Below, piece after piece: positions 10,084-60,705 of a stretch of DNA of 64,000 nucleotides. A model generated the notes under the pieces. The model was not told the origin of the DNA and did no database searches. It saw only the letters and a list, made by a program, of their open reading frames with translations. Numbering within the stretch: the stretch's first letter is position 1; each line of letters starts with the position of its first letter. A program made the position numbers and the translations under genes. The DNA is taken from the NCBI GenBank assembly GCA_963737655.1, contig CAVTTN010000002.1, forward strand, positions 2,464,001 to 2,528,000. Reading direction: 5' to 3'. The stretch is from an uncultured Planctomycetota bacterium (GTDB lineage: Bacteria > Planctomycetota > Planctomycetia > Isosphaerales > Isosphaeraceae).

Positions 10084-10328
10084 CTGGGGTGCATGAAATG
10101 CACCATCCCGGCATCGCTCGTGGATCGATCTTCGTAGGGTGCATGAAATGCACCATCCCGGCATCGCACGTGGATCGATCTTCGTAGGGTGCATGAAATG
10201 CACCATCCCGGCATCGCTCGTGGATCGATCTTCGTAGGGTGCATGAAATGCACCATCCCGGCATCGCACGTGGATCGATCTTCGTAGGGTGCATGAAATG
10301 CACCATCCCGGCATCGCTCGTGGATCGA
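10084..10328 (+). repeat. Tandem array of five 50-bp units, each starting with REP family A (GTAGGGTGCATGAAATGCACC)
   Basis: Units start at 10084, 10134, 10184, 10234 and 10284. The inter-REP sequence is identical except for one alternating T/A. Confidence 0.95.
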
Positions 10329-10342
10329 GACGAAGGGAAGTT

Positions 10343-10771
10343 GGTGCATTTCATGCACCCTACAAAGTCGCATCATCTCACGCAGGAGAGGGCCAATCGG
10401 CGGACGCGGCCGGCATCGACCCTCGCCCCGCGATCGCCGCCTCGTAGGGTGCATGAAATGCACCATCTTTGCATCTCTCGTCTATCGAGGCGAAGGCGGC
10501 CGAAGATGGTGCATTTCATGCACCCTACAAAATCTCATCATCTCACGCACGAGAGGACCAATCGGCGGACGCGGCCGGCATCGACCCTCGCCCCGCGATC
10601 ACCGCCTCGTAGGGTGCATGAAATGCACCATCTTTGCATCTCTCGTCTATCGAGGCGAAGGCGGCCGAAGATGGTGCATTTCATGCACCCTACAAAGTCG
10701 CATCATTTCACGCACGAGAGGGCCAATCGGCGGACGCGGCCGGCATCGACCCTCGCCCCGCGATCGCCGCC
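10343..10771. repeat. 165-bp-period REPIN array (inverted family A pairs) containing copies of the mfnB 3' end
   Basis: Reverse REPs at 10343, 10508 and 10673; forward REPs at 10444 and 10609. Confidence 0.95.
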
Positions 10772-19324: not shown

Positions 19325-20114
19325 GAGGATCATCCCCGTGATCGACGTGATGGAAGGACGGGCCGTCCGGGCCGTCCGGGGCGACCGCGCCCATTATCGG
19401 CCGGTCCGCTCGGTCTTGCACGAGGGTTCCGACCCCCTCGGCCTGGCCCGTGCCCTTCGTGATCGCCTCGGATCAACCGAGCTCTACCTGGCCGACCTGG
19501 ACGCCATCCTCGGCAAACCGCCTGCGTTGCCCTTGCTCGGCGAATTCTCCAAATTGCCCATTCGCGTCTGGGTCGATCCCGGGATTCGGGTTTCGGCCGA
19601 CGTGGCTCCCATTCTCCAGGCCGGGGCTGCGGTCGTGGTCCTCGGGCTGGAAACGCTGAGAGGGCCGGCGGTTCTGGCCGAAATCGTGGAAACACACGGC
19701 CCGGATCGGATCGCCTTCAGCCTGGACCTCCGCGACGGCCGCCCGCTGGTTCCGACCGAATCCGCCTGGGGCACCGCCGATCCTCTCCAGCTTGCCGAGA
19801 TCGCCATCGAGGCCGGAATCCGTCGGATGATCGTGCTCGACCTCGCCCGGGTGGGCACCGGCGCCGGGACGGGCACCGAACCACTGATCGCCGGGCTTCG
19901 AACGAGTCATCCGGCGCTCGAAATCGTGGCCGGCGGAGGAATTGCGGGCCGGGACGACCTGGCAAGGCTCGAATCAGCCGGCGCATCGGCCGCCCTCGTC
20001 GGATCGGCGCTTCACGACGGCCGCTTGTTCGATGGGAGCGACCCTCTTTCTGATTCGACACGGATTCGAAGAGGGCCTTCGGCATCCGCAGGTTACGCAG
20101 ATCACGCAGATTAA
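19323..20114 (+). CDS. HisA/HisF-like TIM barrel, C1-transfer linked (orf17-like)
   Basis: MRIIPVIDV..G.AVRA, LYLADLDAI, VLDLARVG, AGGG and GSALHDG motifs. Confidence 0.9.
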   Translation: MRIIPVIDVMEGRAVRAVRGDRAHYRPVRSVLHEGSDPLGLARALRDRLGSTELYLADLDAILGKPPALPLLGEFSKLPIRVWVDPGIRVSADVAPILQAGAAVVVLGLETLRGPAVLAEIVETHGPDRIAFSLDLRDGRPLVPTESAWGTADPLQLAEIAIEAGIRRMIVLDLARVGTGAGTGTEPLIAGLRTSHPALEIVAGGGIAGRDDLARLESAGASAALVGSALHDGRLFDGSDPLSDSTRIRRGPSASAGYADHAD

Positions 20115-20189
20115 AATTCAAGGAGATGAATTTCATCCTTTTTATCTGCGTAATTTGCGTAATCTGCGGATGCCGAAGGCCCTCTTCGA
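20066..20189. repeat. Palindromic element with ATTACGCAG-type 9-bp subrepeats (family E)
   Basis: Arms of about 50 bp around an AT-rich loop. It contains the HisA-like stop codon. Second copy at 60601-60705. Confidence 0.9.
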
Positions 20190-37067: not shown

Positions 37068-37192
37068 GGGTGGCATGCTTACGTCTTCGTAAGCATGGCT
37101 TCGGTCAGTCTCGAACCGAAGCCATGCTTACGTCTTCGTAAGCATGCCACCCAATCACGGGCGGAAGGATGGTCCGCAAGGGCGGACCCTAC
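37068..37192. repeat. REP family B doublet (85 bp) followed by a family D REP
   Basis: B at 37068-37152; GGTCCGCAAGGGCGGACCCTAC at 37171-37192. Confidence 0.9.
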
Positions 37193-52844: not shown

Positions 52845-54452
52845 GTGAGCGACCCGCCCCGGAACCGGCCGACGCGAGGGGTGGCCCTTTTGCTCATGGC
52901 CGAGGCCCTCGCGCTGGACCTTTATCGATGGGCCGAGGCGGTCCGGTTCGACTGGTTCGCCTTCTTCGACCCCGGGGCCGACCTCGCCGAACATGCCCTG
53001 ATGGCCCGGGGGCTCCGGCCGACGATCGATTTCGGCTACCTCTATGGCCTGTTGCCCCTGGCCGTGGGGGAGCTCGCCTATGGGCTGGCGGGGCTGAGGC
53101 CGGTCGTGTTCGTGGCCCTGTGCGTGAGTTTCGGGATGGTCACGGCCTGGGGGATCGGCCGGGCGCTGGAGGCGCTTCGGGTCGGCCCGGTCGGCGTGGC
53201 GTGGGTCGTGGCGATGATGCCCCTGGACCTGGTCCAGCCGGCCTATCCCTCGCTGGCCCATGCGATCGAGCCGGCCCTGCTCGCCCAGGCCCTGGCCGAC
53301 CTGGCCGGGGGACGGCGGAGGCGGGCCCTGGCCCTGGCGACGGCCTGCGTCTTCGTGAAGCCGTCGATGGGCTACGTCTGCGGGGCCGTGGTCCTGGGCG
53401 CGATCGCCTTCCGCGACCGGCCCGGGACGTGGCGAGACTGGCTGGCGAGGATGGCCCCGGCGGCGGCGGTCGGCTCGGTGCTTTCGCTCGCCCTGGCGGG
53501 GATGTTCGGGGTCGAACCCCTGCTCCGAACCGTCCTGCCGATGGCGGGGCGGGCGGTGTATCGGGCCAACCGATTTGGGTTCTTCTTCGGGACTGGCCGG
53601 GCGTTCTGGCTGTCGCGACGGCCGAGATGGGGCGACTATTTCGGGACGCTCGTCGGGGTCTGGCTCTCGGCGACCCTGGTCCTGATCGCGGCGGCCGTGG
53701 CCTCGATGTCCAGGAAGCGTCGCGAGGCCGCCGAGCGTCGAGGGGCGGCGCCCGCCGGGGTCGATGTCCTGGCGGCCTGCGCGGTGATGCACGGCGCGTT
53801 CGTGCTGTTCTTCTTCGGCAATCGGTGGTCGTGGTTCTATTACGGCTTCGTGCTGGTCCTGGGCGTGGCGACGGTGGAGGGGCGAAGCCGGGCGGGCCGG
53901 GCGATCGTGGCGGGGCTGACCCTCCTGGCCCTCCCGGCGGCCGTCTCGGCGCTGAAGGGGCCGTGGGAGGCCTGGTCCGGGCGGTCGGCCCCGGCGGAGA
54001 CCTTCGGCCTCTGGGCGTCGCCCGAGGTCGTCGAGGAATGGCGGACGGTCCGCCGGCTGACCCGGGGCTCTCGGCCGGTCCTCCTGGCCACGACCGACGG
54101 CCTGGCGGTGATCGACCCGGAGTTCGCCCGTCCCGAGGTGTCGTTCCTGGTCCGGGGCCACGATCGGCCCGGGGAACTGGCGAGGAAGGCCGCCCAGGTG
54201 GAGGCGGCCGAGATGGTCGTGGTCGCGAGGGCCGAGCCCGGCGGCGCGTGGTTCGACGAGTGGCCGGAGTTCTCCCGGGCCCTGAGAGGCCACCGGCTGG
54301 CCTGGTCGTGCGACCGGCTCCGGCTTTACCAGCGGTCCGGCGCCCGTCGAGGAAGTCGAGGTGATCGGGTCGGAGCCCACCCTCCCTCGGCCCGTCGGGG
54401 CCCGGAGGTTGGCGGCCGGCGGCTTGACCACCCCGGTCCCGGGCCGTTATGA
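52845..54452 (+). CDS. Multi-pass membrane protein (possible GT-C fold)
   Basis: D.G...G.RPTIDFGY.YG loop, many TM segments, soluble C-terminus. Confidence 0.7.
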   Translation: MSDPPRNRPTRGVALLLMAEALALDLYRWAEAVRFDWFAFFDPGADLAEHALMARGLRPTIDFGYLYGLLPLAVGELAYGLAGLRPVVFVALCVSFGMVTAWGIGRALEALRVGPVGVAWVVAMMPLDLVQPAYPSLAHAIEPALLAQALADLAGGRRRRALALATACVFVKPSMGYVCGAVVLGAIAFRDRPGTWRDWLARMAPAAAVGSVLSLALAGMFGVEPLLRTVLPMAGRAVYRANRFGFFFGTGRAFWLSRRPRWGDYFGTLVGVWLSATLVLIAAAVASMSRKRREAAERRGAAPAGVDVLAACAVMHGAFVLFFFGNRWSWFYYGFVLVLGVATVEGRSRAGRAIVAGLTLLALPAAVSALKGPWEAWSGRSAPAETFGLWASPEVVEEWRTVRRLTRGSRPVLLATTDGLAVIDPEFARPEVSFLVRGHDRPGELARKAAQVEAAEMVVVARAEPGGAWFDEWPEFSRALRGHRLAWSCDRLRLYQRSGARRGSRGDRVGAHPPSARRGPEVGGRRLDHPGPGPL

Positions 54453-57563: not shown

Positions 57564-57623
57564 GTAGGGCAGGCCTCGGCCTGCCGGGGTGGGGCTGACT
57601 CGGCAGGCCGAGGCCTGCCCTAC
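57564..57623. repeat. REP family C doublet
   Basis: Perfect inverted arms. The right arm supplies the stop codon at 57620. Confidence 0.9.
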
Positions 57624-58009
57624 CGAGCGTGACCCGATGCTCCGGTCTCCGGCGGTCCGCCCGGGTCGGGGGCGCGACGGCCCTTCGTCCTCCCTGGGCC
57701 GTGAAGGATCGTCCCGACGAGGAGCGCCAGGACGGTCAACCCGACGCTCAACCCCACCGGGACCCAGCGCTTGCGGAAATCGTCGGCCGAGGGCGGCCGG
57801 ACCCGGACCGGCGAGGTCGTTCGTCCCAGGGGCTTCGCCCAGACGCTCCCGTCCGAATAGAAGAGGAATTCCTGGCCGTCCTTCCCCATCGACCCGATCC
57901 ACTGCGGCCGGGCCATCACGGCGGGCCAGAGCGTCCCGAGGTTCACGGCGGTCAGCACCGCCGCCATGAGCCAGGGACCGGCCGAGAACCGGGGGCGGGG
58001 CCATCTCAC
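57620..58009 (-). CDS. Small two-TM hypothetical protein
   Basis: GTG 58009 with AGGAG RBS; two hydrophobic segments. Confidence 0.6.
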   Translation of the reverse strand: MRWPRPRFSAGPWLMAAVLTAVNLGTLWPAVMARPQWIGSMGKDGQEFLFYSDGSVWAKPLGRTTSPVRVRPPSADDFRKRWVPVGLSVGLTVLALLVGTILHGPGRTKGRRAPDPGGPPETGASGHAR

Positions 58010-58029: not shown

Positions 58030-58830
58030 TCAGCGGAAGCTCTCGGCCTCTCCCGGGAACCGCCCGGCCTGGACGTCGGCGGCGTACTCCGAGGCGGCCT
58101 TGCGGATCTCCGAGGCGAGGTCGGCGTACTTGCGGACGAACCTCGGGCGGAATTCCTCGAACAGGCCGAGCAGATCGGGCGTGACGAGCACCTGGCCGTC
58201 GCATCCCGGCCCGGCGCCGATGCCGATCGTGGGGATGGCGAGCTCCTTGGTGACCCTCTGGGCCACGTCCGCCGGCATCGCCTCCAGGACGATCGAGAAG
58301 GCGCCGGCCTCGGCCACGGCCAGGGCGTCGGCGAGGATCGCGTCGCCGTCCCTCTGGATCTTGAAGCCGCCCAGGGCCTTGACCGACTGCGGCTTCAGGC
58401 CGACGTGCCCCATCACGGGGATTCCCGCCTCGACCATGGCCCGGATCGTCGCGGCCATCGTCCGCCCGCCTTCCAACTTCACGGCGCCGCACCGCGTCTC
58501 CTTCATCATCCGGCCCGCCGACCGGATCGCGTCCTCGATCGACACCTGATACGACAGGAACGGCAGATCGCCGATCACGAACGCCCGCCGGGCCGCTCGG
58601 GCGACCATCTCGGCGTGATAGATCATCTGATCGAGCGTGACGGGCAAGGTCGTCTCGTGCCCCTGGACGACCATGCCGAGGGTGTCGCCGACGAGGAGGG
58701 CGTCGATCCCGGAGTCGTCCAGGAGGCGGGCGGTCGGGAAGTCGTAGGCGGTGAGGACGCCGATCTTCCGGCCCTCGGACTTCCATCGGGCGAAGTCGGG
58801 CAGGGTCACCGGCGGGGGGCGTTTCGCCAT
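58030..58830 (-). CDS. panB: 3-methyl-2-oxobutanoate hydroxymethyltransferase
   Basis: LTAYD, LVGDTLG, VKLEGG and IGIGAG..CDGQVLV motifs. Confidence 0.95.
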   Translation of the reverse strand: MAKRPPPVTLPDFARWKSEGRKIGVLTAYDFPTARLLDDSGIDALLVGDTLGMVVQGHETTLPVTLDQMIYHAEMVARAARRAFVIGDLPFLSYQVSIEDAIRSAGRMMKETRCGAVKLEGGRTMAATIRAMVEAGIPVMGHVGLKPQSVKALGGFKIQRDGDAILADALAVAEAGAFSIVLEAMPADVAQRVTKELAIPTIGIGAGPGCDGQVLVTPDLLGLFEEFRPRFVRKYADLASEIRKAASEYAADVQAGRFPGEAESFR

Positions 58831-60488
58831 GAGGTCGCTCGTCGGGCGGCGGTCGGCTCGTCCAGATCGGCGAGGATCACGCCCTCGCGGTCGATCTTCA
58901 CGTTGTATCGCCCCCGGATCGCCTCGTGCAAGAGACGCCGACGCGGGTCGTCGCCCATCGGCCAGAGATCGGCGAACGTCCGGGCGCCGCGATCGCGGTA
59001 ATACTCGACCAGGGCGAGGGGATCGGCCGCGTCGATCGTCCCGCCCCACTCGCCCGCCGCGCGGGCCTCGGAACGCTCGCCAACCTCCAGCCGGCATCCG
59101 CGACGATCGGCCAGGAACAGCAGGGCCTCGGGGGCGACGACGAGGTCGTCCGGGCCGGTCAACCGGTCGAGGAAGGCCGCGGCCCTCGGGCCGGCGGACC
59201 ATTGGGGGGGCGTCTGACCTCGAAGCGAGTCGCGAGACTGGACGAGGGCCAGCGCGACGAGCGCGACGAGCGGGAGGGCCTTCGTCAAGGAGCGAGGCGA
59301 GGCTCCTGGAACCCTCGCCACCGAAGCGGGGTTCGTGTTTGGCGTGGTCGAATCGAGGTTCTGGTAGGGTCCGCTATTGCGGACCTCTTCGCGACGAAGG
59401 AAATGGAAGAGGTCCGCAATAGCGGACCCTACAAAGACCGCCCTCGACCACGCGAAACGGGTACGAGCGTGGGAAAGTGGGGCGGCACGACCGATTGCCC
59501 AACCCGAGGCCACCCCCGCCGCGATCGGAGGAGCCAGCATCAACCAGTAATACTCGTGATGGATCTTCCCCGGCATCAGCAAGAACGCCCCGGCCCCCGA
59601 GATCAGCCACCATCGCCAGAGCCGATCGCCCCTCGACCGCCCGAACAGGTTGCCGACCGCCAGGATCAGGCCCAGGGGCGTGAAGGCCCGCCAGAACGCG
59701 ATTTTCGCGACCGTCGCCAGGGTTCCCGGCCTCAGCCACGCCATCGGCGAGACGGCCGAGGCCCAGAGGCCCGCGTTGTCGGCCGAGGCCCGCGAGCCTT
59801 TCCCCGAACGAAGCTCGATCGCGGCGAATCCGTACCAGAGCAGCGCCGGAATCAACGTCGCAAGGACGATCGCAAGCTTCCCCGGCCGTTTCGATCGCAC
59901 GATCGCCGCGAGGAGAGGCACGAGCACGAAGGCCGCCACCACCTTCACCGCCAGCCCCAGGGCCAGGAGCGACCAGGCCAGCGCGAGCCGCCATCGTCCG
60001 CCTTCGGCCTCGTGATCGTCCCACACTCGCAATCCCGCCACCACGAGGCCCATCATCAGCGGGTCGGGCTGGCAGGATCGGCCGTATTTCAGGGTCACCG
60101 GCAGCAGGGCGAACACGGCGACGGCGACGATCGCGAACCCCGGAGATCCTCGACGACGCGCCAGGCCGAACAGTCCCCAGGCGGCCAGGGCGATCGAAGC
60201 CGCCGAGAGCAGCCGCCCGCATCGGCCGATCGGCCAGCCGGTCCGGCTCCGAATCGACGCGATCCCCGCGGCATCGATCGGCGGCTCGACGAGGAACAGG
60301 TTCGGGAACGGCCCGGTGTCGAGCCGGGGACGGAGAAACCCCGAGCCCCGTTCGAGGTTCCGGGCCACCATCGCCGTCGGGACCTGCCGGCCGACGTAAC
60401 CGTCAACGATCGGCTGATCGGGCCACCTCGCCCCGATCGCGAAGACGCCGACGAACACCAGGGCGCCGATCCATCGCTCAGAAGGCAT
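58806..60488 (-). CDS. ArnT/GT39-like membrane glycosyltransferase with internal in-frame palindrome
   Basis: RQ..TAMVARN, EPP, QPD, HEYY, many TM segments. Confidence 0.8.
   Translation of the reverse strand: MPSERWIGALVFVGVFAIGARWPDQPIVDGYVGRQVPTAMVARNLERGSGFLRPRLDTGPFPNLFLVEPPIDAAGIASIRSRTGWPIGRCGRLLSAASIALAAWGLFGLARRRGSPGFAIVAVAVFALLPVTLKYGRSCQPDPLMMGLVVAGLRVWDDHEAEGGRWRLALAWSLLALGLAVKVVAAFVLVPLLAAIVRSKRPGKLAIVLATLIPALLWYGFAAIELRSGKGSRASADNAGLWASAVSPMAWLRPGTLATVAKIAFWRAFTPLGLILAVGNLFGRSRGDRLWRWWLISGAGAFLLMPGKIHHEYYWLMLAPPIAAGVASGWAIGRAAPLSHARTRFAWSRAVFVGSAIADLFHFLRREEVRNSGPYQNLDSTTPNTNPASVARVPGASPRSLTKALPLVALVALALVQSRDSLRGQTPPQWSAGPRAAAFLDRLTGPDDLVVAPEALLFLADRRGCRLEVGERSEARAAGEWGGTIDAADPLALVEYYRDRGARTFADLWPMGDDPRRRLLHEAIRGRYNVKIDREGVILADLDEPTAARRATSWRNAPRR
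59364..59432. repeat. Intragenic REP family D doublet, 69 bp
   Basis: GTAGGGTCCGCTATTGCGGACCTCTTC and its perfect inverse. Confidence 0.95.
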
Positions 60489-60582: not shown

Positions 60583-60705
60583 CACCGAAACGCAGATTAC
60601 GACAAGGACCGAAACGCAGATTACGCAGATGAAATCAAGAATCATTGATATGATTTTATTTATTTAATCTGCGTAATCTGCGTAATCTGCGTTTCGGTCC
60701 TTGTC
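60583..60705. repeat. Family E palindrome (CGCAGATTA subrepeats)
   Basis: Arms at 60601-60630 and 60676-60705, AT-rich loop, partial extra arm at about 60583. Confidence 0.9.

Follow-up and report, generated by a model that had tools for sequence, protein, structure and literature searches.

How a REP doublet comes to lie in frame in the middle of a membrane enzyme gene, and which piece of DNA was inserted there, is the question raised by a locus in the window, that is, the whole stretch of 64,000 nucleotides of an uncultured Isosphaeraceae genome analysed here. The initial annotation had placed a GTAG-type inverted doublet of exactly 69 bp inside the open reading frame (ORF) of a membrane glycosyltransferase, and had taken these 69 bp as the inserted unit, codon-aligned and adding 23 residues. 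The doublet and its place in the ORF were borne out by this work, whereas the inserted unit has to be redrawn, in that the mobile piece is a 134-bp element with IS66-type ends around the doublet (Table 1).

Table 1. Features of the glycosyltransferase locus in window coordinates, and places of hairpin-forming inserts in orthologous proteins
Feature	Position	Strand	Remarks
GT-C (ArnT/PMT_2-like) membrane glycosyltransferase gene	58806..60488	-	ORF, 560 aa, reading frame intact
panB (ketopantoate hydroxymethyltransferase)	58030..58830	-	Pfam PF02548, E 1e-110; directly downstream of the glycosyltransferase
134-bp miniature element (MITE), IS66-type ends	59331..59464	.	Residues 342-386; arm + doublet + arm
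Left terminal inverted repeat	59331..59344	+	Worn copy of GTACGTGTTTAGCG
Right terminal inverted repeat	59451..59464	-	Worn copy
REP doublet (REPIN) core	59364..59432	.	69 bp, 27-bp perfect stem; residues 353-375
REP copy 1	59364..59385	+	GTAG end outward
REP copy 2	59411..59432	-	GTAG end outward
Left flank	59312..59330	.	Similar to one half of a different palindromic repeat family; a possible, worn duplication has one side in the last 7 bases
Right flank	59465..59481	.	Similar to one half of a different palindromic repeat family; that possible duplication has its second side in the first 7 bases
Single intergenic REP, same family	37171..37192	-	2 mismatches; between two convergent genes
Orthologs L038, L075			Insert in the same loop as in the window's gene
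Orthologs L100, L105, L111			Insert near residues 191-214
Ortholog L089			Insert near residues 280-291

The doublet itself is an ordinary member of a repeat family. Read in frame in the minus-strand ORF it gives the 23 residues VGSAIADLFHFLRREEVRNSGPY, and as nucleic acid it folds into a 27-bp stem (z -11.6) that none of 200 shuffles equalled. A scan for the 22-mer of the REP, which the initial annotation had suggested, returned 99 matches with no more than 4 mismatches, distributed over 52 loci in the own genome, only one of the 52 loci being intragenic and frame-preserving; across the bacterial family the 22-mer was found in 22 of the 121 genomes searched, and the reversed control gave no match. 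The family thus shows a terminal-GTAG palindrome in many copies and inverted doublets of fixed spacing that fold as hairpins and lie mostly outside genes, as is required of GTAG REPs and REPINs. The doublet measures 70 bp at 21 of the 52 loci and 69 bp at 6 (27/52 at 69-70 bp), so that 69 bp is not a family trait. The related single REP that had been noted at 37171 is indeed intergenic, and it adjoins a doublet of another repeat family.

Additionally, the REP of the doublet flanks NF047646 RAYT genes at three loci in other genomes (L213, L214 and L217; genomes G008, G043 and G065), and judged from these sequences the core belongs to a genuine RAYT-associated REP family. The own genome, which is 88% complete, yielded no cognate RAYT among the 7 Pfam Y1_Tnp and 2 further RAYT matches inspected, all of them flanked by other REP families or by none. 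One RAYT gene with an early stop stands inside long tandem arrays of the same REP (L213:800-2300, G065). Two other REP families of the genome also occur in the window: at least nine clustered copies of the most abundant one lie at 10134-10690 (its RAYT is at C2:5224571-5225104), and a doublet of a third family lies at 57564-57625 between a GT2 gene and the next gene (its RAYT is at C2:5608338-5608856).

The repeat similarity around the doublet extends by BLAST from about 59312 to about 59481, and within it the doublet is enclosed in a short element without a transposase, bounded by 14-bp terminal inverted repeats with the consensus GTACGTGTTTAGCG. At least one terminal arm is present at 22 of the 52 REP loci and both arms at 13, where 0.4% would be expected per random 28-mer, and 10 of the 13 both-ended copies in the own genome measure exactly 134 bp. 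The usual build is 32+70+32, and the copy in the glycosyltransferase is built 33+69+32. An 8-bp target duplication is perfect (8/8) at three of the 13 both-ended copies and 7/8 at one more, the chance of 7 or more being 0.001, and a clear duplication is absent at the other 9/13. At the glycosyltransferase copy it matches at 4/8 positions, or at 5/7, and the empty site rebuilt there forms no significant hairpin (z +0.9). The ends of the element fall inside codons, at residues 342.3 and 386.7, and the protein has about 62 extra residues rather than 23; the codon alignment of the 69-mer is therefore an incidental by-product, and from the earlier description the in-frame reading of 23 residues stands but its boundaries do not. 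The reading frame used by the insert is free of stops in all 4 copies examined.

The same 14-bp ends bound single-ORF elements of 1.43-1.49 kb in relatives (L234, L239, L251 and L280), with perfect 8/8 duplications in three of the four, and their protein matches PF03050 (DDE_Tnp_IS66) above the cut-off. The own genome carries a 79% identical transposase with the right end present (L279); no left end was detected, and the start is interrupted by another repeat-cored element, so that this copy is, judged from its sequence, probably inactive now. The interrupting miniature element (G000:C2:4306990-4307190) has different ends, starting GAGGCTATCCGG, and is built around the doublet of a second REP family, which makes it a second type of repeat-cored MITE. 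In a separate observation, a 1177-bp element of another genome (L254:338-1514, G002) carries the same IS66-type ends around one ORF, which from its motifs we take to resemble an IS630-type transposase.

The ends are not confined to one core. Genome G016 has 228 matches to the IS66 end sequence, and 18 of the 20 sites sampled there (C1, L298-L317) are elements of 154-157 bp in which the same ends enclose another GTAG doublet, perfect 8/8 duplications being present at 10 of the 18; this has the look of a large and recent burst. Neither G016 (72% complete) nor G135 (61% complete) yielded an autonomous element of close similarity. When the empty sites were rebuilt, 6 of 11 in G016 and 4 of 5 for the other copies of the own genome folded at z ≤ -2, versus 15% of 60 intergenic controls. 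The available part of the literature on IS66 describes an ISBst12 group, e.g. ISDge4, with a single ORF of about 450-480 aa, 14-bp ends starting with GT and an 8-bp direct repeat (PMC12898284), and the full-length partner fits this group by its single ORF and 8-bp repeat.

The host gene encodes a membrane glycosyltransferase, as had been proposed from the sequence. The protein matches Pfam PMT_2 (PF13231, E 3e-6) above cut-off, and its structure model (pLDDT 87, pTM 0.86) has ArnT (5f15) as the best Foldseek match, with an E of 1.6e-8, a TM of 0.51 and 14% identity; profile and predicted structure together describe a polytopic membrane domain of GT-C fold followed by a C-terminal soluble domain. 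An NCBIfam search gave no match, and an identity as ArnT itself is supported by none of these tests (Pfam, NCBIfam, or Foldseek at 14% identity). The nearest relatives of the protein are from Isosphaeraceae / Planctomycetota. Downstream, the glycosyltransferase ORF overlaps the first 25 bases of panB, and a panB-like ORF is present in 80 of the 81 loci compared.

As had also been proposed, the doublet lies in a loop between two hydrophobic segments, which are predicted membrane helices at residues 312-335 and 398-417. Orthologs align from residue 1 to about 330 and again from about 400 to 550, HHEYY and TPxEW stand 116 residues apart compared with 48-55 in 15 of 18 orthologs, and the loop exceeds the median of the 68 intact proteins by about 62 residues. 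The expected alignment gap thus does span this loop, but it is larger than 23 residues. None of the 67 other intact orthologs (13 of the 81 loci, with split or cut genes, were omitted from this count) has the inserted segment, which agrees with the proposal that repeat DNA added a peptide segment here. The model assigns pLDDT 37-61 to residues 331-400 and above 80 to most other blocks, and the loop is predicted to be tolerated, floppy and without a function of its own. The active site of ArnT is periplasmic. From the helix count, the basic residues and this position of the active site, the three loops that carry inserts in this enzyme family would be cytoplasmic.

Different palindromes have entered this gene time and again. 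In-frame inserts that form hairpins (z -2.8 to -6.9) and add 34-107 residues occur, in three loops, in 6 of the 67 other intact orthologs (Table 1), one of which, L100, is a record of Tautonia; two further inserts are found in L017 and in the frameshifted L086, the latter of which would lie on the opposite side of the membrane from the three presumably cytoplasmic loops. The inserts in the orthologs differ in sequence and length and are scattered over a quick tree, and 12 of 19 loop expansions, short (11-23 residues) and with weak or no hairpins, were omitted from the count. A pairwise pipeline recovered 6 hairpin inserts in 85 matches to the glycosyltransferase gene and none in 305 matches to neighbouring genes; under a stricter identity filter, 60 arbitrary stretches taken from three genomes with inserts gave 346 gene pairs and no hairpin insert. 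These controls of 305 and 346 are mostly conserved soluble enzymes, so the excess is one over such enzymes rather than over all membrane proteins, and a Fisher p of ~1e-4 is given no weight, being overstated through the non-independence of kin.

Within the own genome, in-gene copies are rare survivors, unlike in Opitutus terrae, for the REP family lies mid-gene at only 1 of its 52 loci under a self-trained coding model. None of the four commonest repeat seeds, with 201, 100, 97 and 79 loci, has a mid-gene copy. The broader proposal that REPINs of this lineage insert into genes therefore holds to the extent that different palindromes have repeatedly entered one gene, and not as a habit of the repeats. 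Two apparent in-gene REPs were discarded: at C2:5784469 the ORF runs through past a frameshift in the upstream gene, and at C2:5325687 the REP precedes the likely start. Most mid-gene matches of the 16-mer seeds, with one mismatch allowed, resemble chance hits within normal coding DNA and have been left out. In 295 gene comparisons, 46 frameshifts were apparent, a figure that counts errors in the relatives' sequences as well and so is an upper bound; with an assembly this prone to indels, the in-gene counts may be low.

A search for non-coding dips inside the ORFs of the own genome reduced 492 dips to 12 candidates, and besides the glycosyltransferase three of them are backed by ortholog gaps, each with a palindromic in-frame insert: an Lhr helicase (G000:C2:5644786-5649297), an acyltransferase-3 (about 56 residues; G000:C2:5494999-5496264) and an O-antigen-ligase-like protein (about 40 residues; G000:C2:2190330-2192789). 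A PNPOx candidate was rejected, its orthologs matching residues 207-356 only. In another candidate a palindromic repeat lies between the tetrapyrrole methylase part and the CbiC part of one ORF (G000:C2:4856485-4858293), which may be a linker insert or a fusion of genes, and the remaining candidates are low-complexity or frameshifted stretches. A further observation belongs here: an acyltransferase-3 homolog in G015 (L260) has a loop 44 residues longer at the same place as the insert in the own genome, the loop being short in 10 of 11 homologs.

Based on these findings, we propose that a 134-bp, REP-cored and IS66-ended element was likely inserted by an IS66 transposase of the ISBst12 group, that it was likely kept only because the net gain preserved the reading frame, and that it is predicted to persist as a tolerated, functionless cytoplasmic loop, a reading we hold with good though not full confidence. 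First, a RAYT-type REPIN would once have been captured between IS66 ends and would now be carried as cargo. Second, the copy may have landed in the remnant of an older palindrome already present in the loop, as these elements often land in hairpins. The 134 bp together with a 7-bp duplication, or one of 8 bp less one base, would make 141 bp or 47 codons, and the remaining 15 or so extra residues would derive from the older remnant. Both the landing in an older palindrome and the 141-bp arithmetic draw on the sister copies, since the copy's own duplication is poor and its own empty site has no significant hairpin. Third, the loop would face the cytoplasm, away from the catalytic side, and the insert is most likely a neutral passenger. 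A frameshift could also have been polar on panB, whose start the glycosyltransferase ORF overlaps, and the same frame filter would account for the survival of unrelated palindromes in these few loops of relatives.

The arrival could instead have involved no transposition at this site: recombination or gene conversion among copies of the repeats would have placed the composite in an older palindrome of the gene. Each flank matches a different repeat family, the duplication is as poor as 4/8 and the left arm seems homogenised with the right arm, all of which would suit such an event; however, the homology in the flanks is shorter than 20 bp, clean 8-bp duplications are found at sister copies, and a worn duplication is what an old copy is expected to have. 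We regard this route as improbable.

Little probability, likewise, is left to the reading that the insertion broke the gene, which would be dead or dying or would owe its open frame to an error of assembly, so that the protein is not produced. Several features of the gene would be in keeping with decay: its end branch in a quick tree is 0.69 compared with a median of 0.36, it retains 114 of 126 conserved columns (12th lowest among the 68 proteins), and the 12 changed ones include E to D and N to G in the first conserved motif, from which selection on the gene may be relaxed. The protein is recorded from a single contig, and the one-base shortfall of the doublet core sits in a G run of an indel-prone assembly. 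Against this, no stop or frameshift interrupts the 560 codons, so that the split gene named beforehand as a refutation was not seen; GC3 is 0.86, in the upper half of the 68; and both halves of the protein around the loop fold with high confidence in the model. At no more than 0.13 frameshifts per kb, the chance of any indel error within 190 bp is about 2.5% at most, and the 69-bp doublet is also present at five other loci.

A RAYT may also have inserted the REP doublet alone, on codon boundaries, into a pre-existing shell or loop, and this would suit a core that belongs to a RAYT-associated family and is better preserved than its arms. A terminal arm is absent at 30 of the 52 loci, and a short shell-like hairpin without REPs does exist at C2:3602041. 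Yet the spacing between shell and core is identical at the 10 copies of 134 bp, none of the 9 Y1 transposase loci inspected in the own genome, itself 88% complete, has a RAYT flanked by the doublet's REP, and the predominant doublet is the 70-bp one (21/52); we consider insertion of the doublet alone very unlikely. That the insert has been recruited, as an amphipathic inner-face helix tuning the enzyme or as an mRNA hairpin tuning the downstream panB, is highly doubtful too, for although the model places a helix at residues 354-371, the stem has stayed perfect next to decayed arms, and panB overlaps the end of the glycosyltransferase gene, the pLDDT of that helix is near 50, the inserts of relatives at these loops are unrelated in sequence and length, and perfect stems are the rule in intergenic copies as well.

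Returning to insertion by an IS66 transposase, a wider version of it can be put forward tentatively, as a possibility we would not favour at present: that the IS66 transposases of the Isosphaeraceae took over the spread of REPINs, through swappable captured cores and the targeting of hairpins, wherein a palindrome in a tolerant loop attracts more of them. The cytoplasmic loops of polytopic envelope-glycan enzymes (GT-C, acyltransferase-3 and O-antigen-ligase-like, all in the same genome) might thereby have become recurrent sinks, gaining 40-100 de novo residues at a rate well above that of other genes.

The basic phenomenon is already in print, and a specialist's surprise should therefore be moderate. 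The initial annotation held the Rickettsia palindromic elements (RPEs) to be the best-known in-frame case, but the available part of Di Nocera, De Gregorio and Rocco 2013 (PMC3733652) already describes intragenic GTAG REPs and head-to-head dimers, some of them in frame and adding 20-30 residues, within a class that is mostly intergenic and RAYT-associated. Its supplement, in the portion consulted, has at least 70 rows of in-gene GTAG REPs for Opitutus terrae (PVC), the most of any, and at least 8 for Rhodopirellula baltica, and its section 7 notes GTAG dimers inside longer palindromes. The family described here resembles these REPs, as far as that source portrays them, in its GTAG-tagged dimer, its mostly intergenic position, its association with RAYTs and the in-frame copies, and differs from them in that the outer palindrome is tied to IS66 ends with 8-bp duplications, that in-gene copies are rare (1/52), and that the host, a membrane glycan enzyme, has received inserts repeatedly across a bacterial family.

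A second precedent is QMITE2 of Coxiella burnetii, according to excerpts of its description a MITE of 150-190 bp that has terminal inverted repeats and direct repeats of 7-11 nt, harbours a GTAG REP, occurs in full-size and REP-only versions and lies sometimes in frame in the middle of hypothetical ORFs (PMC5896051). There the REP is targeted by IS1111 and the text seen names no IS66 partner, whereas the present element has the ends of a single-ORF IS66, a doublet core with a cognate RAYT, and a host gene of recognisable conserved fold. The RPEs, in the accounts available to us, are palindromes of about 150 bp in frame in unrelated genes and compatible with the fold, nearly half of them in ORFs and encoding a conserved peptide (PMC10969869, PMC3733652). 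The REP family has neither a large share in frame in ORFs (1/52) nor a conserved peptide, and the inserts in orthologs are mutually unrelated; the element works like an RPE at the glycosyltransferase locus but is no member of the RPEs.

Miniature elements that share only their ends with a full-length partner are described, in the part available, as type II MITEs (PMC10969869). Compared with these and with the ISBst12 group, the present elements are distinct in carrying REP doublets of two families in two genomes as cores and in often landing in hairpins. REPs as targets of IS are likewise on record in the text at hand (PMC3184786). In the REPIN-RAYT system, as outlined in the portion seen of Bertels and Rainey 2011 (PMC3116915), a hairpin is formed by two REPs in inverted orientation at a constant distance, and REPs flank the RAYT gene; here, by contrast, IS66-type arms are present at about 40% of the loci and the own genome yielded no cognate RAYT. 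In a search of the accessible literature, no paper was found that links REP cores to IS66 ends or reports IS66 MITEs with REP cores, and none on in-gene repeats of the Isosphaeraceae or on recurrence in this gene. In-frame intragenic GTAG REPs and REP-bearing MITEs are thus known, within what these two sources make available (PMC3733652, PMC5896051), and what is unusual here is the nested build.

The locus corrects the mechanism to be assumed for such cases, in that an in-frame REP doublet need not have been placed by a RAYT and can ride in the miniature element of an unrelated DDE transposase. It also offers a countable natural experiment, with at least nine insertions of different palindromes (the window copy included) in one membrane enzyme family and mostly in three loops, mapping where the GT-C fold tolerates 25-100 foreign residues. 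The neutrality of repeat-derived peptides thereby becomes testable in cultured relatives (L100, Tautonia).

Some minor features of the neighbourhood may be added. A second long hydrophobic ORF at window positions 52845-54452 has no Pfam family above cut-off and is possibly another membrane glycosyltransferase. The AT-rich gap just upstream of the glycosyltransferase gene (60585-60705) holds a hairpin of short tandem units of the ACGCAGATT type; a pair resembling it lies near 20095-20160, and its seed has 37 loci in the genome.
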